DNA of 64,000 nucleotides from Candidatus Aenigmatarchaeota archaeon (GTDB lineage Archaea > Aenigmatarchaeota > Aenigmatarchaeia > CG10238-14 > SpSt-28): the NCBI GenBank assembly GCA_038733315.1, contig JAVYPJ010000001.1:318832-382831 (forward strand), in the 5' to 3' direction. Position 1 is the stretch's first letter, and every line of letters begins with the position of its first letter. Positions 28,932-59,177 of this stretch are shown one piece after another. The position numbers and the translations under genes were made by a program. The notes under the pieces are model-generated. The model was not told the DNA's origin and did no database searches. It was given only the letters and a program-made list of their open reading frames with translations.

Positions 28932-29080
28932 GCCGGGGTCGCCTAGCTGGCTATGGCGGCGGACTTGAGTGACAGATTGGCGTGAAACTGATTAGAAAAT
29001 GAAAAATGATGTGGGTGTCGAAATGAGAAAGAAATCCGCTGGGCTTTACGCCCGCGTGGGTTCAAATCCCACCCCCGGCG
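28932..29080 (+). tRNA. tRNA-Ser (anticodon TGA) with 64-nt intron (28970..29033)
   Basis: Type II tRNA. Anticodon stem GCGGA/UCCGC is split by an intron after position 37. Long variable arm UGGGCUUUACGCCCGC. Discriminator G73. Exons near-identical to the second Ser gene. Confidence 0.75.
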
Positions 29081-35501: not shown

Positions 35502-35601
35502 GCCGGGGTGGCGGAGTGGCTTCACGCGGCGGGCTGCAGGGTTTTGCGATTTATGAGCGATGGAAACCCGCAGATCCCGGGTTCAAATCCCGGCCCCGGC
35601 T
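35502..35601 (+). tRNA. tRNA-Cys (anticodon GCA) with 26-nt intron (35540..35565)
   Basis: Acceptor GCCGGGG/CCCCGGC. Discriminator U73. Anticodon stem GCGGG/CCCGC interrupted after position 37. Confidence 0.75.
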
Positions 35602-35802
35602 AGTTAATTTCTACTAAACCCATATGTGGAGTGTATAAGAAAGTTAAAAAGAAAAAAGTAGAAAAAAAGTTTTTTAGAATGGGCTTAGTAGGGATTAAAA
35701 TAGTTGCTGTTTAATCTCTTAAAGTCTATATTGAAAGATTATTGACTCTCTATTATAGATTTGTTTGTAGTTTCTATAAATTTGTTCAAATGATTAAATT
35801 TT

Positions 35803-36003
35803 ATGAAGAAGATACGTAGCAATGAAGATATAAGAGAAATAGGAATAGCATTAATAACGGCAGTTATGGTTGTAGCTATAATAGGAATAATGTTTACTAG
35901 GGATTATCTCAAAGTAGGAATATGTATTTTGGGTCTAATAGTAGTGGCATATATAGTTTATAAAATGGTATCTAAAATCTATAGTAGAATCCGCTCAACT
36001 TAG
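35803..36003 (+). CDS. Small 2-TM membrane protein
   Basis: 66-aa hydrophobic ORF. Confidence 0.25.
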   Translation: MKKIRSNEDIREIGIALITAVMVVAIIGIMFTRDYLKVGICILGLIVVAYIVYKMVSKIYSRIRST

Positions 36004-36034
36004 ATTTTTATGCTGTTTATATAATAATATTTTT

Positions 36035-36724
36035 ATGATAGAGAGGATTCCAACGGGAATTCCAGGATTAGATGAATTAATCGAAGGGGGAATTCCTAAG
36101 GGATTTCAAATTTTGGTTGCTGGAGAAGCTGGTGCGGGAAAAACAATTTTTTCTTGTCAGTTTGCTTATAATAAAGCAAAGGAAGGGTTAAAAACATATT
36201 ATATGACTATAGAAGAGAGTGAAAAGAGTATAATAAAAGGTATGTCAAGATTCACATGGGGTAAAGAGTTCGAGGATTTTGTTAAATCCGAACATATTAT
36301 AATCGAAAGAACTATTCCACTAAGTATAGAGGATATAACAAGAAAAGTCTTAAGCGCGTATGATAAATACAAGTTTAAAATATTTATTTTAGATACTTTA
36401 ACAGCTGCGGCAATGGGTTGGAAGGAATTACAAGATTTACCCAAGCTAAGAAGAAACATTTTTAGTTTGATAGATATATTAAGGCAGTATGAAATAACAT
36501 CATTAATGTTAAGTGAAATAGAAGAGGGAAGGCTTTATAAATATGGGTTTGAAGGCTATCTAATGGACGGTGTAATAGTTCTAAGATATCTAGAATTTAT
36601 AAGTACTGGAATACCCAGAGCGCTGCAAATTCTAAAAATGAGAGGTACAAAACATATAGAACAGGTTTGTCCAATCGAAATAGATAATAGTGGCATAAAA
36701 ATAACAAAACCCGGCTTGGTTTAA
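36035..36724 (+). CDS. KaiC/RadA-like RecA-superfamily ATPase
   Basis: IPTGIPGLDELIEGGIPKGFQILVAGEAGAGKT Walker A in a KaiC-domain context. 229 aa. Confidence 0.75.
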   Translation: MIERIPTGIPGLDELIEGGIPKGFQILVAGEAGAGKTIFSCQFAYNKAKEGLKTYYMTIEESEKSIIKGMSRFTWGKEFEDFVKSEHIIIERTIPLSIEDITRKVLSAYDKYKFKIFILDTLTAAAMGWKELQDLPKLRRNIFSLIDILRQYEITSLMLSEIEEGRLYKYGFEGYLMDGVIVLRYLEFISTGIPRALQILKMRGTKHIEQVCPIEIDNSGIKITKPGLV

Positions 36725-36779
36725 ATACAGATTTAAATCAACTCGATTTTAAAATATTTAATATTTTTATTATAATTTA

Positions 36780-37373
36780 ATGAGTGAGAAAGAAAAAAAT
36801 TTTTTATCCTCCTTTTTTTGCGAAAGCGATTCTCAGGAGATTAGAAATTTGTGCAAGAGTATAGTTCTTTCTAAAAGAGATAAGGAACCAATAGAAGCTA
36901 TTTTTTTATGGGTTAGGGATAATATAGAGTACACTATAGAGCCGAAGTTTGTTAGCGCTAAAGGTTATATAAGAAAAAAAACTAAAAAAGGTAATTGCTT
37001 TAATAAAAATAATCTTTTTATTGCATTATGCAGAAGTATCGGTATCCCTGCGAGATATGCTATAACTAAGTTAATTTTTACTATAAAAGACATCAATAAA
37101 AAATTTGTCATTCCGCATATGGTTGCTGAAATATTTTATAACAATCGTTGGGAGATTTATGATACGAGTTTTGGTAAGAAATCGTCTGAATTTAGAACCA
37201 GATATATTAGTGTTTTTAGGGGTTTGAATGCTAGAGTACTTCTAAGATTCTGGAAAGTGAATATTTTTATACTAATTTTCATGTTTTTATTTTCTAAAAT
37301 TTCTCCAAATATTAGAAGACTAAAACGTTATTTAAAAATAGTTCCTGAAGTTAATATTACACTATCCGAATAA
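36780..37373 (+). CDS. Transglutaminase-like cysteine protease-fold protein
   Basis: KGNCFNKNNLFIALCRSIGIPARYA matches the TGase-like core catalytic Cys motif. Confidence 0.6.
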   Translation: MSEKEKNFLSSFFCESDSQEIRNLCKSIVLSKRDKEPIEAIFLWVRDNIEYTIEPKFVSAKGYIRKKTKKGNCFNKNNLFIALCRSIGIPARYAITKLIFTIKDINKKFVIPHMVAEIFYNNRWEIYDTSFGKKSSEFRTRYISVFRGLNARVLLRFWKVNIFILIFMFLFSKISPNIRRLKRYLKIVPEVNITLSE

Positions 37374-38083
37374 TAGGTAGATTTACTATTTATGTTCGAA
37401 AAACCATACTTTTTTAGTAAATTTTCCACTTCTTCCCTAGTGTGTAGGTGGGTATTTAATCCTATCTTCATCGGTATATTTAGAAATAAAATAGAGGCAA
37501 AAATTATAGAATATTTAAATTTTTCTCTTATTGTTTTTAAGTTTTCTATCAATTCCTTATGCATTTTTGAAATAAGATCCTTATCTAATTTTATTTCTCC
37601 ATCTGGATAAACAAGGGCTATTTTTCCAGAATTTTTAAGAACCCTTCTACTTTCTCTTATGAAGTTCTCTAGAGTTTGATCATCTAGATACATAATAAAA
37701 TTTATTGCTGAAATGCCATCGAACATGTTATCGTGATATGGTAGTTTTTCTCTGAAATAATATTTTATAACGTCTACTCTGTCTATACAATTATTCTTTT
37801 CTGCTTTTTTTCTTACCAATTCTAACCCTTTTTCTGATAAATCGAAACCGTAAAATTTAATATTATTCCTATTTTGACCAAGAGCGTAAATAATAAAATT
37901 CCCGCTTCCGCAACCGGCATCTAGAAAGTTTCCTGATGTAAATTTTTCAATTTTCAGAGCGTTATAAGTATCGCGTAGCATTTTTTCATATTCAGGGTGT
38001 TTAGACATAAAATCATAAAAAGGTAGATATATATTCCAAAACAGTTGTTTGGTTAAATCTTTTATAGAAAAAACCTGTGTCAT
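37328..38083 (-). CDS. Class I SAM-dependent methyltransferase
   Basis: LDAGCGSGNF motif I. Follows a UbiE/COQ5-like pattern. Confidence 0.7.
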   Translation of the reverse strand: MTQVFSIKDLTKQLFWNIYLPFYDFMSKHPEYEKMLRDTYNALKIEKFTSGNFLDAGCGSGNFIIYALGQNRNNIKFYGFDLSEKGLELVRKKAEKNNCIDRVDVIKYYFREKLPYHDNMFDGISAINFIMYLDDQTLENFIRESRRVLKNSGKIALVYPDGEIKLDKDLISKMHKELIENLKTIREKFKYSIIFASILFLNIPMKIGLNTHLHTREEVENLLKKYGFSNINSKSTYYSDSVILTSGTIFK

Positions 38084-39597
38084 ATTTGGTATAGCTCTCT
38101 TTCTAATTGTCTTTTAATTTTTTCATACTGATCAATTCTAATTGTGTTATGCGGTTTATGATGTGAAAGTGGATAAACTATATCTTTTAACACATTTGGG
38201 GGTAGTCTTTCTACCTCTATTGTTCTTAAGGATTTGAACATTGGATTCATAAAATCGTATAATCTGTCTTCTATTTCTATAATTTCTTCATCGTTAACAT
38301 TGTCTGGTAACAGAACTATAATTCTATCGTTTTTGTTATCATGGTTTTCAGCAACTTCAGGAATTACTATACAATAATCATATCCGAAATAATGTCTTAG
38401 AATCTCCTCTGCGATATCTAAATTGAAGGAATACTCTCTCACCTTTACTGTTCTTTCATCGCTCTTTCTTCTGATATCATAAGAGAGTGTTGGAAAGGGT
38501 ATTTTCATTTCTATGCCGTTATATATAGTTTCGGTTTCATAGCTTATTAATTTCGTAATATCACCCACAGGATAGTCTATTAGTGCGGTTCCTTCGAATG
38601 GGGCCGTTACTCTGATTTCTCCTTCTTCACCCTCGCTAACGTTATTCCCATATTTATCTACTACTCTAACATGTACAAATGTTTCTCTTACTACTAGGCC
38701 ATCTGTCGGTGGAATACGTCTATTTTCGCTTGACATTACACCATTTGCTATAAAGGCGAATGGACATACCTCTTGCGCTCCATATAGATTAGCAAATATT
38801 CTGGCCCCAATGCTATGTGCTTCTTCTACAGACTTTTTTGATGGTTTATAACCACCGACGCTGATAAGTTCTAATTTATTATATCTTAGACCATTTTCTG
38901 TCATAAATTTTGCTATATCATGAAGTATTGCTGGAGTAGTTTGTATGGCATCTACTTTATCGATAGTTTCTATAACATAGTCTGCTAATCTGCCCCCAAT
39001 AGGTTCTCCATAACATAATAATCTTATGGGTATTCCACGCTTGAGCGAGAACGCTGGAATGGAAACTGCTGGATATAGACCAGAACCAGAAGGCATTCCG
39101 TATAAATGTGCAAGATCGGCGATAGTAGGTGTTTCTATATCTTTAAAAACTGTCTTTATGCTTGGATATAAAATCTTATTAAAAAACTCTTCAATATCTC
39201 TCGCTGTATATGCAACAGTTTTTCGTTTAAATATTTTTGGAAATTCTTTAAGGTCGTACCTCCCTCTAATCTTTTCTATTGAAGTATATCCTGATGAGGA
39301 CTGAACCCATATTCTGTACTTAGGATCTACCATGCTTAAATGTTGAGAAAAGTTCTTACCCATTAGATCATTTGGTTTTGGAGAAATTACCGATCCATAT
39401 TTTTCTAGAAATCTATCTAATTTTTCAATGGTGTTTATTTGTTTAACTTCCCAAATATCTATATCGTTTTCCTTTAATTTTTTTCGATAAAATGGTATTT
39501 GAAGTGCATTTCTAGCTCTCTTCGCAATTTTATTTCTCTCTCTTTCAATATATAATTTTCCTACTCCGTTATAAATTAGTTGTTTAATGTTTATCAT
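38080..39597 (-). CDS. Adenylate-forming enzyme of the ANL superfamily (PaaK/CapK/F390-synthetase-like)
   Basis: N-terminal IPFY motif, SSSGYTS (A3-like), YGAQE (A5), GEEGEIRV (A6), YPVGDI (A7), RRKSDERTVKV (A8). Confidence 0.5.
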   Translation of the reverse strand: MINIKQLIYNGVGKLYIERERNKIAKRARNALQIPFYRKKLKENDIDIWEVKQINTIEKLDRFLEKYGSVISPKPNDLMGKNFSQHLSMVDPKYRIWVQSSSGYTSIEKIRGRYDLKEFPKIFKRKTVAYTARDIEEFFNKILYPSIKTVFKDIETPTIADLAHLYGMPSGSGLYPAVSIPAFSLKRGIPIRLLCYGEPIGGRLADYVIETIDKVDAIQTTPAILHDIAKFMTENGLRYNKLELISVGGYKPSKKSVEEAHSIGARIFANLYGAQEVCPFAFIANGVMSSENRRIPPTDGLVVRETFVHVRVVDKYGNNVSEGEEGEIRVTAPFEGTALIDYPVGDITKLISYETETIYNGIEMKIPFPTLSYDIRRKSDERTVKVREYSFNLDIAEEILRHYFGYDYCIVIPEVAENHDNKNDRIIVLLPDNVNDEEIIEIEDRLYDFMNPMFKSLRTIEVERLPPNVLKDIVYPLSHHKPHNTIRIDQYEKIKRQLERELYQI

Positions 39598-39606
39598 ATT
39601 TTTAAA

Positions 39607-40161
39607 TTAAATAATAGCTACCTTAAATTCTTCGACTTCATCGCCTTTAGAGTGACATCTTATCTCTTCTACTATAACCTCTCTGTTAGTAAATAACTTT
39701 GCCCATACATATAAATTTACTTTATAGAGTATACAAACTCTCGACTTACCATTGAAGACATTTTTAGAGAATTCTAAGATGGGAGAGTTTTTTATTATGA
39801 CATCTAAGATAATATTTCCAGATTTTTCATCTCTAAAAACGTTCTTAATCTCGACCTTGCCTAGTCCGTATATATCCAGGAAAGATTCTAGATTTTTTAA
39901 AGGTTTTATATCTTGTAGGTCTTCAATGGTTGGAATATTAAATATTTTAAATACCTTTTCCATAGCAATTTTACAGGCTTCTAACAATATCTTTTCGGTC
40001 TTTTCTTCTCCTATTTCCTCAATAACTTTTTGATAAAGATACGCGAGAGAATCCGCTTCTACAAAGACAATGTTGTATTTACCCATTACTGATATTCTAC
40101 CGTTTTCTATGCTTAGTGCTCCAGCAAGCATCATTCTTTTGAAAAAATCTGATATTGCCAT
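39607..40161 (-). CDS. V4R-like domain protein (predicted small-molecule binding)
   Basis: C-terminal EEIRCHSKGDEVEEF resembles the V4R terminal C..G..C-F motif with one Cys lost. First gene of the operon with the PaaK-like enzyme and methyltransferase. Confidence 0.35.
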   Translation of the reverse strand: MAISDFFKRMMLAGALSIENGRISVMGKYNIVFVEADSLAYLYQKVIEEIGEEKTEKILLEACKIAMEKVFKIFNIPTIEDLQDIKPLKNLESFLDIYGLGKVEIKNVFRDEKSGNIILDVIIKNSPILEFSKNVFNGKSRVCILYKVNLYVWAKLFTNREVIVEEIRCHSKGDEVEEFKVAII

Positions 40162-40329
40162 CTTTCTATAAAAAATTATTATAGAGATTAATATATAAAT
40201 ACTTTTCTGTATGTGGTGAAAATTGTGATCACGTTTTTTACTATTAACGAGGAATTATCATAATTTATATAGATTTCGACACATCGGGAATATTATTTTA
40301 AATAATAATTATATTATTACCTAATAATT

Positions 40330-41631
40330 ATGATAAAAGAAAATTATTTACATCCCTTTAAAGGTTTGAGAGATTTTCCTTCAGAAATTGAAATTTTGAG
40401 AAAAAATATTTTTCAAAAAATAGAAAGAATTTTTCAAAGATATGGTTTCGATCCAATAGAAACTCCGATAGTTGAAAAATGGGAAGTTTTAAAAGGAAAA
40501 TATAGTGAAGATGTTGAGGATAAACTAATTTGGAGATTTAAGCTACCATATAGCGAAAAAGAATTTGGATTAAGATACGATTTGACAATTCCTTTAGCTA
40601 GATTTTATTCAAGGTTCAAGCCAAAGCTACCCTTTAAAAGGTATCAAATTGGAAGAGTTTTTAGGTATGAAGAGCCACAAAAAGGGAGATATAGAGAATT
40701 TTGGCAATGCGATTTCGATATTTTGGGTTCGAGAAGTTTTTTAGCTGATGTAGAGATTCTAAATGTTGTTATTGATGTTTTTAAAGAATTTAATTTTAAA
40801 GATTTTTTAATTAAAATTAACGATAGAAATTTATTAGCTTTTATTTTTGAAAAGAAAACAGGGATAGAAAAAGAAAAAATAATTAAAGTTTATAGAATTA
40901 TTGACAAACTAGATAAAATAGGAAAAGAAAATGTATTAAAAGAATTAGAGAGGGAATTAAACAAAAAACAATTAAATGAGATTGAAAAAATCATAGATAT
41001 CTCTGAAATGCAAAACGAAGAAATTTTTATAGAATTGGAAAAGATTAGTTCAAAAGAGTTAAGCGAATATATTGAAAATTTAAAAAATATAATAGATTTT
41101 GTAAAGGAAAAAAATAAAATAAAAGTAGATTTATCCTTAGTAAGAGGTTTAGATTATTATACTTCAACAATTTTTGAAGCTATAGTTAAAAAACCAAGAA
41201 TTGGAAGTTTAGCTGGTGGTGGGAGATATGATAATTTAATTTCTAAATTTATAAATCAAAACGTTCCGGCTGTTGGTGGGAGTATAGGGATTGAAAGATT
41301 AATAGATGCTGGAATAGAATTGGGCTTGTTTAATCTTAATGAAAAAACATACTGTAAAGTTGGAGTAATTTTTACTAAGGAAGTTGATATCAAAAAAGTT
41401 TTAGAGATAGTAAATAGGCTAAGAGAAAATGACATAAATACGTTTATGTATTTTACTGCCTTTAAAAATATTGTTGAAGGAATAAAGGAATTAGATAAAA
41501 GAGGGATTAAGTATGCAATAATAGTAGGAAGTAGAGAGATAGCTGAAAACAAGTTTACACTTCAGAACTTAAAAACAAGAGAAAGATATACATTAAGCAT
41601 AGAAGAAATAATAAATAAGTTAAAGAGTTAG
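40330..41631 (+). CDS. hisS: Histidyl-tRNA synthetase
   Basis: Class II motifs LRYDLTIPLARFY, YQIGRVFR and GGGRYDNL. C-terminal anticodon-binding domain. Confidence 0.85.
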   Translation: MIKENYLHPFKGLRDFPSEIEILRKNIFQKIERIFQRYGFDPIETPIVEKWEVLKGKYSEDVEDKLIWRFKLPYSEKEFGLRYDLTIPLARFYSRFKPKLPFKRYQIGRVFRYEEPQKGRYREFWQCDFDILGSRSFLADVEILNVVIDVFKEFNFKDFLIKINDRNLLAFIFEKKTGIEKEKIIKVYRIIDKLDKIGKENVLKELERELNKKQLNEIEKIIDISEMQNEEIFIELEKISSKELSEYIENLKNIIDFVKEKNKIKVDLSLVRGLDYYTSTIFEAIVKKPRIGSLAGGGRYDNLISKFINQNVPAVGGSIGIERLIDAGIELGLFNLNEKTYCKVGVIFTKEVDIKKVLEIVNRLRENDINTFMYFTAFKNIVEGIKELDKRGIKYAIIVGSREIAENKFTLQNLKTRERYTLSIEEIINKLKS

Positions 41632-43292: not shown

Positions 43293-43309
43293 AAATATTT
43301 TTTATGATT

Positions 43310-43621
43310 TCAAGATAGTAGTTCGTGGAGTTTAAATAAGAACTTATGAACTTCTGAGTATTCTTTTCCAATAGTTGCAAAAACTCCTAGTAAATCATTT
43401 ATTCTTTTTCTTTCTATTTCCTTAATTTTTCTGTATATGTATTTTGTGTATGGTGTCATTAAATTATTTTTTTCTTCAATTCTTTCTAATCTTAAAAACA
43501 TCTCCTCCATACTAGATAAAAATACAGAAGTTTTATATTTATACGGTATTTGTGAATATAACTCTTCTAAAGAATTTTTTGCGTATGAGATGGTTTTTCG
43601 CAACGGAAAAATAATAGACAT
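43310..43621 (-). CDS. Hypothetical protein
   Basis: 103-aa helical ORF. Overlaps the opposite-strand ORF. Confidence 0.3.
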   Translation of the reverse strand: MSIIFPLRKTISYAKNSLEELYSQIPYKYKTSVFLSSMEEMFLRLERIEEKNNLMTPYTKYIYRKIKEIERKRINDLLGVFATIGKEYSEVHKFLFKLHELLS

Positions 43622-43847
43622 GGATTATAGTAAGAACAAAAATAAAAATCAAATAAAGATAAGGTTAAGAGGGATTGATGAGAGGGGTTTAGAATGTGTT
43701 GTAAATAATTTATTAGATGAGTTTAAAAACAAATTGGGAAAGCTAAAAACTAAGGTTTATGTGACGAGTAGAAGCACGTTAAATACGAGTATAGCTATGG
43801 AAGAAATTGTTACTCTTAGAGAGTTTAAGAAAAGGTATTTAGCATAA
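43437..43847 (+). CDS. Hypothetical protein (likely starts at internal Met, position 43590)
   Basis: The C-terminal 86 aa (MVFRNGKIIDMDY...) look protein-like. The N-terminal part overlaps the minus-strand ORF. Confidence 0.25.
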   Translation: MYFVYGVIKLFFSSILSNLKNISSILDKNTEVLYLYGICEYNSSKEFFAYEMVFRNGKIIDMDYSKNKNKNQIKIRLRGIDERGLECVVNNLLDEFKNKLGKLKTKVYVTSRSTLNTSIAMEEIVTLREFKKRYLA

Positions 43848-44542: not shown

Positions 44543-44557
44543 GATTTTAATTTTAAC

Positions 44558-45118
44558 CTAAAATATATACTTTAAAGATTTTTGAACGAACTCTTTTAAT
44601 TCTTCAGAGTTTTTTGGATTAAGATTAACATAAGATTTTAGCAGTTCTTTTAGTTCTGAATGTGGTATTTCTGTAATTTTTGAATTATTAAATAATTTTT
44701 TTAACATCTCTTTATTTTCTGAAATTTGAAATTGTATAGCTTGTGTAAAAAATTCTATTATGATCTTTAAAATTCCTGTTGCATAGGGATCTTTGGATTG
44801 TAATAAGAACTCTCTAACATCTTCATTTTCCTCGAGAAGAATGTGGTGGAGTATTTCTTCTTCCATTATTCTACGTAGCTCTTGTTTATCAGAAAAAAGA
44901 TACGTAGGAATAGTTATTTTATGTGAGTAAATGTCATAAGAGGGAAAGAGTTCTTTTAGAGAAGTTTTACACATACTAAAAGATGGGATTTTTATAGTTT
45001 TTTTTGGAATTTCATACTTTTCAACAACAGTATTATACAAATATTCTGTAAGCTTATTTATTTCTTTTTTATATTTTCTTTCGTCTAATACGTGTTTTTT
45101 GTATTTTTTATACGACAT
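44558..45118 (-). CDS. Hypothetical helical protein
   Basis: 186 aa. Contains EEEILHHILLEE. No confident family assignment. Confidence 0.3.
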   Translation of the reverse strand: MSYKKYKKHVLDERKYKKEINKLTEYLYNTVVEKYEIPKKTIKIPSFSMCKTSLKELFPSYDIYSHKITIPTYLFSDKQELRRIMEEEILHHILLEENEDVREFLLQSKDPYATGILKIIIEFFTQAIQFQISENKEMLKKLFNNSKITEIPHSELKELLKSYVNLNPKNSEELKEFVQKSLKYIF

Positions 45119-45127
45119 ATACTTTTT

Positions 45128-45553
45128 TTATTTTTTTAAAAGATAATTTTTTACAAAATTTTTAAACACATTATAAACTTCACCCGGATTTATTGCGTAA
45201 TTTACCCGATTACTATTTAGTTTATTTTTGTCTTCTTTCTTTGTCACTGAGTTGTTGCGGTATAGGGTTAAATAACATACATTTTTATTGTTATCTTTGC
45301 TAAAAAATACCTCTCCAATTAATGAATCAGAGGTGCGAAATTTTATCTCTAAGTATTTACAGACTTTCCTGTTACTAAAACACTTACATCCATCAAGTTT
45401 GTCTGGATTTGAAATTTCTTTATTTTCTATGTCTATATTTAGAAGCTCGTAATCTCGATGTTCGGGATGTCTGCATTTAAATTGGATAGATTTTGAATTG
45501 CAAAAAAGTTCCTTCACAATAGTTTTCAGTTCGCTTTTTTCTAACTTTCTCAT
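45128..45553 (-). CDS. Hypothetical Cys/His-rich protein
   Basis: 141 aa. CNSKSIQFKCRHPEH and CKCFSNRKVC clusters suggest Zn binding. Confidence 0.3.
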   Translation of the reverse strand: MRKLEKSELKTIVKELFCNSKSIQFKCRHPEHRDYELLNIDIENKEISNPDKLDGCKCFSNRKVCKYLEIKFRTSDSLIGEVFFSKDNNKNVCYLTLYRNNSVTKKEDKNKLNSNRVNYAINPGEVYNVFKNFVKNYLLKK

Positions 45554-45684
45554 AATTAATTTTTATAGATTAGAGTTAATATAACTTATATTGATTTACA
45601 TTATTATTAATTAATAATGTTTTTTAATTTTTAATAACCGTAAAATAATACAGATTTGTATAACGGGTTAGAATAATATTTGTC

Positions 45685-45757
45685 TAGCCCCGCCCGGATT
45701 CGAACCGGGGTCTCCGGGTCCAGAGCCCGGCATCCTTGGCCGCTAGACGACGGGGCT
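45685..45757 (-). tRNA. tRNA-Gln (anticodon CTG)
   Basis: Reverse complement: AGCCCCG...CGGGGCU with A1:U72 (typical of archaeal tRNA-Gln). Anticodon loop CUCUGGA. Confidence 0.8.
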
Positions 45758-50647: not shown

Positions 50648-50766
50648 TGCGGGGGGTGGGATTTGAACCCACGACGGCTCTACGCCATCGGGTTTCTTAT
50701 CATTTATTCAAAGCTTAAGATTTTATCTTAAGCCCGACGCCCTTGACCAGGCTAGGCGACCCCCGC
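50648..50766 (-). tRNA. tRNA-Leu (anticodon TAA) with ~33-nt intron
   Basis: Type II tRNA with long variable arm. The anticodon stem UCGGG/CCCGA is split after position 37. The intron carries CUUAAG, complementary to the exon's CUUAAG (BHB helix). Confidence 0.75.
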
Positions 50767-53498: not shown

Positions 53499-53637
53499 GC
53501 CGGGGTCGCCTAGCGGATATGGCGCCGGCCTCGAGTTAAATGATAAGCTCTGGGGTAGCTGAAAATAATGATGATTTTGCTATAAGAGAAAGCCGGTGGG
53601 CTTTACGCCCGCGTGGGTTCAAATCCCACCCCCGGCG
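53499..53637 (+). tRNA. tRNA-Ser (anticodon CGA) with 55-nt intron (53536..53590)
   Basis: Acceptor, D-arm, variable arm and T-arm are the same as the tRNA-Ser(TGA) gene at 28932. Anticodon stem CCGGC/GCCGG split after position 37. Discriminator G73. Confidence 0.75.
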
Positions 53638-58991: not shown

Positions 58992-59038
58992 ATAAATTTA
59001 TCAGAGATAATAAAGTTAAATTCTTCGTATAATATCAT

Positions 59039-59135
59039 TGGGGCCGCTGGGATTCGAACCCAGGTCAGCGGGTTTCTTCACTTTTCTGAGCTCCATTTCT
59101 GGAGCCCGCCGTCCTGCCATCTAGACGACGGCCCC
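59039..59135 (-). tRNA. tRNA-Trp (anticodon CCA) with ~24-nt intron
   Basis: GGGGCCG acceptor. Anticodon stem GCGGG/CCCGC split after the CUCCAG loop. Intron UGGAGC is complementary to exon GCUCCA (BHB). Confidence 0.75.
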
Positions 59136-59177
59136 ATAAATTGTTAAGATTTTTATATCTTTTCATAAAATATTTAT

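Follow-up and report, generated by a model that had tools for sequence, protein, structure and literature searches.

What is the block of genes that lies between a tRNA-Cys gene and hisS in a Candidatus Aenigmatarchaeota genome, and do the proteins that it encodes belong together? The question arises in a 64,000-nucleotide stretch of DNA (contig JAVYPJ010000001.1 of assembly GCA_038733315.1, positions 318,832 to 382,831), hereafter the window, in which position 1 is the first letter. Here, a KaiC-like ATPase and a transglutaminase-like protein (TG) on the plus strand converge with a minus-strand operon for a V4R-like protein, an adenylate-forming enzyme of the ANL superfamily (hereafter ANL) and a class I S-adenosylmethionine (SAM)-dependent methyltransferase (MT). 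We read the segment 36004–40329 as one copy of a rare, horizontally mobile DPANN gene cassette with a putative pathway that is set out below, and we assign this reading a probability of roughly 0.55. The accessory nature of the cassette and its conserved architecture are well supported, whereas its biochemical role is speculative. The interval and its borders are laid out as follows.

35502..35601, plus strand: tRNA-Cys(GCA) with a 26-nt intron at the canonical position 37/38 (Rfam RF00005, 51.2 bits; ARAGORN -i, i(37,26))
35803-36003, plus strand: 66-amino-acid (aa) open reading frame (ORF) with two hydrophobic, transmembrane (TM)-type segments, in the strain-variable segment 35611..36001
36035..36724, plus strand: single-domain KaiC/RadA-like ATPase (PF06745, 162 bits, 1.6e-47)
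36780..37373, plus strand: TG, a Cys-His-Asp protein (PF01841, 57.8 bits against a cut-off of 23, 1.6e-15)
37328..38083, minus strand: class I SAM-dependent MT (Methyltransf_25/11/31 above cut-offs)
38080..39597, minus strand: 505-aa PaaK-fold adenylate-forming enzyme, ANL (weak PaaK-like NCBIfam matches; predicted fold)
39607..40161, minus strand: 184-aa stand-alone V4R-like protein, first gene of the minus-strand operon (Pfam V4R, 19 bits)
40162..40329, no strand: intergenic region that separates the divergent V4R operon and hisS and bounds the block on the right (homology to the contig L014 restarts at 40327)
40330-41631, plus strand: hisS, the right flank

The window is low-GC archaeal sequence (GC ~27%). 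Contigs of two Candidatus Aenigmatarchaeota metagenome-assembled genomes (MAGs), GCA_039001505.1 (L001) and GCA_038996605.1 (L002), match it with a nucleotide identity of 98.6%. All features listed in a preliminary description of this DNA were found where it had placed them, and its domain calls (KaiC, transglutaminase-like, V4R-like, ANL and class I MT) are correct. It had further described the minus-strand genes as joined by ATGA overlaps, which is the case at the ANL/MT junction, whereas V4R and ANL are separated by a 9-nt spacer. The 3' region of TG overlaps the 3' end of MT by 46 nt. Upstream of V4R, a TATA-like box, TTTATATA, is read directly in the intergenic region 40162..40329.

The block is present or absent among close relatives

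A site without the block was recovered by searching metagenome contigs with the window's hisS. The resulting contig, L014, runs from the tRNA-Cys 3' end through the 66-aa ORF and 62 bp to the start of hisS (86% nucleotide identity), and the 4.3-kb KaiC-to-V4R block is absent.

The block also differs from its surroundings in composition and in divergence. The GC content at third codon positions (GC3) is raised in all five genes (z +0.95 to +2.6), and no other run of five genes among the 66 ORFs ranks above them (permutation P 0.003-0.012). Two other segments of the window, both clearly strain-specific insertions, share this bias. Relative to L001, the TG, ANL and V4R genes carry synonymous differences at 4 of 547 sites; by comparison, five flanking genes carry them at 41 of 921 sites (Fisher P 2.6e-5), so that the three block genes are ~six-fold less diverged synonymously than their flanks. 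The MT gene departs from this pattern. Between 37328-38083 of the window and 11518-12288 of L001, the encoded proteins share 89% amino acid identity with a 5-aa indel, the proportion of synonymous differences (pS) is 0.067 and the ratio of nonsynonymous to synonymous proportions (pN/pS) is 0.59, unlike TG and V4R, which show zero synonymous differences between the same strains. This divergence suggests a recombination mosaic or relaxed selection at MT. Taken together, the empty site in a relative and the signatures of composition and divergence bear out the accessory status that had been proposed for the block.

Decayed and transferred copies are found in other genomes. ANL and MT survive as frameshifted or deleted remnants at L010 18-3574 (an Aenigmatarchaeota MAG) and at L012 2363-3800 (a Bathyarchaeia MAG). 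The L010 remnant (83-87% nucleotide identity) lies in a genomic context other than that of the window; its neighbours are a PGF-CTERM surface protein of 597 aa and an ORF whose integrase-SAM-like match is weak. In addition, the ANL and MT proteins of some Aenigmatarchaeota are nearer to the Bathyarchaeia copies than to the window's copy: the Aenigmatarchaeota ANL protein P0003 is 62-64% identical to Bathyarchaeia proteins and 43% identical to the window protein.

The left part of the interval varies in its own right. Homology to L001 and L002 stops exactly at the tRNA-Cys 3' end, which makes the tRNA the left border of the variable interval. A ~395-bp segment with the 66-aa ORF is absent from L001, L002 and L099, all of which keep the enzyme block and have in its place ~6 nt or a 195-bp TatD-KaiC gap. 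Conversely, the ORF is present in L014 at 94% nucleotide identity, where the enzyme cassette is absent. Its pN/pS against a homologue is 0.16, indicating purifying selection and thus a real gene. Since the two-TM ORF and the enzyme block vary separately among relatives, the tRNA-Cys/hisS interval holds two independently variable cassettes, and the two-TM peptide, which the preliminary description had grouped with the block, is not a member of it.

The same genes form a recurrent cassette across lineages

Our comparison of related loci reveals KaiC, TG, MT, ANL and V4R together in Parvarchaeota and in no fewer than seven divergent loci of the Aenigmatarchaeota type. A 98-aa winged helix-turn-helix (wHTH) protein, which is absent from the window, usually joins them. 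The gene orders observed are listed below.

L008 and L009 (Aenigmatarchaeota MAGs) and L011 (uncultured archaeon): co-directional 98-aa wHTH, V4R, ANL, MT, TG; orthologous KaiC 2-5 kb downstream
L003 (Aenigmatarchaeota MAG): wHTH, V4R, ANL; the contig stops inside ANL
L093/L094 (ANL 36% identical to the window's): V4R, ANL, MT, TG; a convergent KaiC overlaps TG
L097 (Logan assembly): KaiC, wHTH, V4R, ANL; the sequence ends inside ANL
L098 (JGI metagenome): a wHTH-like candidate (104 aa, without Pfam match), V4R, ANL, MT
L100/L101 (Parvarchaeota): a KaiC-V4R pair, then wHTH, V4R, a 545-aa ANL-type protein, MT, V4R, KaiC, TG

In every lineage with intact genes, V4R and ANL, like ANL and MT, either overlap or are separated by no more than 12 nt, and MT comes after ANL in all loci where sequence downstream of ANL was available. 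TG is co-directional with and downstream of MT in L008, L009, L011, L093 and L101, and an orthologous KaiC adjoins the module or lies within 5 kb of it in L093/L094, L097, L011, L008, L009 and L100/L101. The Parvarchaeota cassette (L100/L101 1770-8600; GCA_025920685.1 / GCA_025920645.1) holds three V4R and two KaiC genes and is followed by an MFS transporter, and its wHTH protein is 44% identical to that of L009. By comparison, the Bathyarchaeia loci L004, L005/6, L007 and L012 carry ANL-MT alone.

The window contains every component of the cassette except the wHTH protein, all as intact genes, and TG and KaiC here point the opposite way to the enzyme operon. Together with the comparative loci, this content indicates that the plus-strand genes, without the two-TM ORF, and the minus-strand operon are one cassette. 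The preliminary description had treated the plus-strand genes as separate from the operon; the comparative loci put TG and KaiC in the same cassette, and the recurrent co-occurrence led us to reject the idea of two unrelated gene sets. The combination of six genes (KaiC, wHTH, V4R, ANL, MT and TG) was not found in the searchable literature.

Two further arrangements were observed among the loci. In L096 (673-6579), two paralogous ANL genes stand on one contig (ANL, MT, a 543-aa ORF, ANL), which indicates enzyme duplication within the module. In the Bathyarchaeia locus L004 (1-9758), the contig terminates in a block resembling a head-tail virus (terminase, HK97 gp10-like, tail tube), and ANL-MT lies immediately next to it.

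The ANL enzyme represents a rare branch of the PaaK clade

The window ANL has no Pfam match, and the PaaK equivalog model NF041878 gives 33.6 bits against a cut-off of 700. Across the PaaK equivalog models, scores of 21-34 bits stand against cut-offs of 646-700, and no paa genes are present in the window or in any related locus. An ordinary PaaK was therefore rejected, in agreement with the earlier view that ANL is no ordinary phenylacetate- or acetyl-CoA ligase. Relatives are few: ten 90%-identity clusters among 5.8 billion proteins, and, in an exhaustive hidden Markov model search of 1.84 billion representatives, 17 matches below 1e-10, of which about seven (50%-identity clusters) are full length. 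Beyond these 17 there is a sharp drop to PaaK-, FlxY-, DVU_1553- and F390-synthetase-like enzymes at ~1e-8; these PaaK-clade enzymes are the next-best sequence relatives, with 13-18% identity. A look-up of the exact sequence of the window ANL protein returned no record, the nearest one differing by a few residues.

Residues of the adenylation core are largely conserved. In a 30-sequence alignment with PaaK-like enzymes, Y272 and E276 (A5), D346 (A7) and R377 (A8) are invariant and K481 (A10) is at least 90% conserved. K481 lies in a C-terminal HHKPHN motif, invariant in the ten closest family sequences and replaced by HYKPHN in distant members. The P-loop is distinct from that of the PaaK clade, in which it reads SSGTTGKP: in the ANL family, SSGY is followed by a 17-25 aa insertion (~20 aa in the window) and then by RKK, such that only SSG is kept of the canonical A3 motif. 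Of the motifs A3-A8 that had been called recognisable, A5, A7 and A8 thus stand and A3 is non-canonical. Extra N-terminal and A7-A8 insertions, along with HHKPHN, further set ANL apart from PaaK-clade enzymes. The 545-aa ANL-type protein of Parvarchaeota carries canonical TSGHTGESKK, YGSTE and PLIRYPTGD motifs.

A family profile of ANL found no match at E ≤1 among PDB sequences, and an AlphaFold2 (AF2) run on a 10-sequence alignment gave an unusable model (predicted local distance difference test score, pLDDT, 57). With a deeper alignment, AF2 returned a model with a pLDDT of 85.9, which is biased toward the PaaK fold and not fully independent because this alignment included PaaK-like sequences. 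A Foldseek search with this model placed BT_0428 and PaaK1/2 first (E ~1e-22), with HCL, ClxA, NatL2 and AjiA1 also among the matches (probability 1.00). PaaK1/2 (2y4n, 2y27) and BT_0428 (4r1l) share the same short two-domain fold, with TM-scores of up to 0.71 on the target. ANL is accordingly predicted to adopt a two-domain ANL-superfamily fold of the PaaK clade, and it is a member of a very rare, unnamed PaaK-clade family with a P-loop insertion.

A V4R-like protein and putative ligand sensor

The window V4R protein scores 19 bits against PF02830, below the Pfam cut-off of 31 bits, and orthologues pass it (36 bits for that of L011), so the earlier V4R call holds at the level of the family and falls short for the window protein taken by itself. 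The family comprises 17 clusters, nearly all from Aenigmatarchaeota, most of them with a precomputed PF02830 assignment. For V4R domains, the binding of hydrophobic ligands and signalling in cis or in trans have been proposed (PMC2253512), and those of DmpR, XylR and MopR sense aromatics (PMC7264223). In the cassette family, C143, E166 and C169 are invariant, and the family's third cysteine is a glutamate in the window protein. The family's cysteines are spaced by 26 and 8 residues; as judged from sequence alone, the same spacing separates Cys151, Cys177 and Cys185, which bind zinc in the phenol-sensing V4R domain of DmpR (PMC7264223), and a three-cysteine cluster has also been noted for V4R, PoxR and MopR (PMC5847659).

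Against PDB chains, the V4R protein gave a weak match to the archaeal stand-alone V4R protein MJ1460 (2oso) and no significant match to DmpR, MopR or PoxR. A domain search gave a weak XylR_N-like match at its N terminus. By comparison with known V4R sensor domains (DmpR/XylR/MopR/PoxR, MJ1460 and Bet3), the cassette protein is distinct. It is a stand-alone protein of ~180 aa that lacks the AAA+ and DNA-binding domains of DmpR-type regulators, and its gene is translationally coupled to that of an enzyme.

In the more distant locus L013 (1314-2653), a KaiC orthologue (67% amino acid identity) directly follows hisS and shares an ATGA overlap with a 215-aa ORF. This ORF was considered as a V4R protein and rejected: it holds only a short C-terminal CxxxGAxxCxF motif, with an HHalign probability of 6% and no Pfam match.

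KaiC, transglutaminase-like protein and methyltransferase

The KaiC protein has 229 aa and one domain, in which Walker A (GEAGAGKT), an EE motif (TIEES) and Walker B (FILD) can be read. A circadian KaiC was rejected, given that the protein is a single domain and not a duplicated CI-CII of ~500 aa, that the circadian KaiC model NF006799 gives 137 bits against a cut-off of 408, and that neither kaiA nor kaiB is found near the window KaiC. A role as hubs of signal transduction has been proposed for archaeal KaiC-like ATPases (Makarova et al. 2017, cited in PMC5847659). The cassette KaiC shares with these the single RecA-like domain, and in several loci it stands beside small wHTH and V4R sensor-type proteins.

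In the MT protein, motif I reads LDAGCGSGN, with D55, G57, G59 and G61 invariant, and a hydrophobic lid motif, N(I/L)PMK, is also conserved. Its profile matched generic class I relatives alone in the PDB, which gave no hint of a substrate. In TG, the triad C73/H113/D128 is invariant, the C-terminal tail is hydrophobic and a PDB profile search matched 3isr (3.5e-8). Modules of an ATP-grasp enzyme and a transglutaminase were reportedly described by Iyer et al. in 2009. The cassette resembles such systems in its logic: alongside a ligase that uses ATP to activate a carboxylate stands a Cys-His-Asp enzyme of the transglutaminase fold, which may form or break the very amide bond concerned. This is a resemblance only: the ligase is of the ANL type and not ATP-grasp, and alpha-E and the other hallmark partners are absent.

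Proposed pathway

Our best guess at the function, drawn from gene content and motifs, is a ligand-controlled pathway of carboxylate activation, methylation and amide transfer. In such a pathway, V4R would bind a hydrophobic or aromatic ligand and either present it to ANL or gate the enzyme, and ANL would activate a carboxyl group as an acyl-adenylate. The coupled MT would then methylate the same substrate or product, and TG would form or cleave the resulting amide or thioester bond via its catalytic cysteine, with KaiC (and wHTH where present) acting as an ATP-dependent regulatory switch. The role of V4R is proposed from its tight or translational coupling to ANL in every V4R-bearing lineage, and the pathway as a whole from V4R-ANL-MT coupling together with the conserved catalytic residues. 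The activation and methylation of a small molecule or protein adduct, as put forward in the preliminary description, would be a reasonable reading of the same genes. More tentatively, V4R and KaiC may control ANL, MT and TG in a DPANN-specific covalent modification that places a reversible hydrophobic acyl or amide adduct on a protein or on a host-derived lipid or metabolite. We consider this version doubtful; if true, it would represent a new regulated conjugation chemistry tied to the episymbiotic lifestyle.

Several observations weigh against the reading of 36004–40329 as a mobile cassette with this pathway. No integrase is present among the window ORFs. A search of the attL/attR type, allowing at most 3 mismatches, found no second copy of the tRNA-Cys 3' end, in line with the earlier statement, and the flanking direct and inverted repeats are AT-rich and at chance level. 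In L013, whose hisS is 67% identical, the KaiC orthologue lies on the opposite side of hisS. In view of these points, integration at the tRNA is no more than a candidate mechanism, and either an insertion or a deletion may account for the difference. Of the features of a tRNA-integrated island, the locus shows the presence/absence polymorphism beside the tRNA and the compositional deviation, and it lacks the integrase and the att repeat. The empty site L014 is a single 1-kb metagenome contig. As for the composition of the cassette, V4R, KaiC and TG are not obligatory partners, as the ANL-MT pairs of Bathyarchaeia demonstrate; KaiC is distant and non-adjacent in L008, L009 and L011; and the TG subfamily, with ~45 clusters, is more widespread than the ANL family, so TG may act elsewhere. 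As for the chemistry, the disruption of the canonical P-loop means that adenylation activity is not assured, and the ANL model leans on PaaK-like sequences as described above. Furthermore, carrier proteins, CoA-pathway genes and glycosyltransferases, any of which might hint at a substrate, are not present.

Alternative explanations

The block may instead be ancestral housekeeping synteny, neither mobile nor foreign, that was deleted in the organism of L014. The lack of an integrase, an att repeat or flanking repeats fits this explanation, as do the identical position of the block in four genomes (the window, L001, L002 and L099) and the KaiC orthologue beside hisS in the more distant L013. Against it stand the raised GC3 of all five genes, as in the two clearly strain-specific insertions of the window, and the synonymous divergence of TG, ANL and V4R, six-fold below that of the flanks. 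The module also stands in different genomic contexts in other lineages, its ANL-MT similarity is greater across phyla than within the phylum, and a decayed copy persists in another context in L010. We therefore hold ancestral synteny to be unlikely, with some chance of being right.

Three other explanations concern what the enzymes do. In cell-surface glycan modification, which we judge distinctly unlikely, ANL would join an amino acid to a uronic-acid sugar through an amide bond, and this sugar would be methylated by MT; AglU/AglV of Methanococcus maripaludis are the proposed precedent. There, MMP1084 (AglU), which we take to be an F390-synthetase/CapK-like protein needed for threonine attachment, adjoins MMP1085. 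MMP1085 itself is an experimentally supported glycan methyltransferase (PMC2952790). Horizontally exchanged, strain-variable surface-modification genes are common, and the L010 remnant adjoins a PGF-CTERM surface protein; however, no glycosyltransferase, flippase or sugar-nucleotide gene is found in the approximately twelve loci examined, and KaiC, V4R, wHTH and TG are left unexplained. Improbable, too, is an anti-virus defence or conflict system, with V4R/KaiC as sensor and ATPase and with ANL, MT and TG as effectors. The rare, patchy, horizontally transferred and often pseudogenised module in a variable hotspot would suit such a system, and so would some of its neighbours: a prophage block (L004), an N6_N4 DNA methylase (L007), ATPase_2 and DUF87 (L005), and AAA_14/DUF4143 ATPases (L008, L009, L011). 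By comparison, PADLOC matched only the generic methyltransferase core, PHROGs gave generic methyltransferase and RecA-type ATPase matches only, no nuclease or other obvious toxic effector is encoded, searches of viral contigs and of phage and plasmid records returned no ANL gene, and no defence genes adjoin the block in the window. An ordinary catabolic operon around an aromatic-acid (phenylacetate/benzoate) CoA ligase, with V4R as the aromatic sensor, would be in keeping with PaaK1/PaaK2 and BT_0428 as the closest solved folds and with the aromatics sensed by DmpR, XylR and MopR (PMC7264223). This explanation is very improbable in view of the PaaK equivalog scores, the non-canonical P-loop, the reduced-genome DPANN hosts and the lack of paa, box or ring-cleavage genes in any locus; moreover, some PaaK-fold enzymes make no CoA esters (NatL2, AjiA1 and ClxA among the fold matches).

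Other variable sites in the window

Two strain-specific insertions relative to L001 were found downstream of hisS. The insertion at 43302-43840 (540 bp) is flanked by a 14-bp direct repeat (AGCATAAATATTTT) and holds overlapping ORFs of 103 aa (minus strand) and 136 aa (plus strand) without family assignment and with high GC3 (z 2.3). The insertion at 44549-45680 (1.13 kb) abuts the 3' end of tRNA-Gln (45685-45757, minus strand) and holds two minus-strand ORFs (186 aa and 141 aa) that match neither Pfam nor PHROG families, one of them with a GC3 z of 2.0.

Four more Rfam tRNAs of 97-149 nt, at 28932-29080, 50648-50766, 53499-53637 and 59039-59135, probably contain introns. A default ARAGORN run misses three of these four and miscalls the fourth (tRNA-??? 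at 59038-59136); the tRNA-Cys gene beside the cassette was likewise missed by the default run and was called once introns were allowed. Collinearity with L001 stops exactly at the tRNA at 50648-50766.

Biological implications

Every component of the cassette comes from a known superfamily, and the ANL subfamily is unnamed and extremely rare. Its place in the PaaK clade and the insertion within its ATP-binding loop make it relevant to the study of how enzymes evolve. The interval next to the tRNA is a further example, from an uncultivated lineage, of a hotspot that hosts independent cassettes, and the pairing of a KaiC-like ATPase and V4R with an enzyme set provides a concrete, testable case of the proposed KaiC-based archaeal signalling. 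In genomes as small as those of DPANN archaea, the retention of several enzyme genes as one unit, their exchange between phyla and their repeated loss point to a specific function that is of use under certain conditions.

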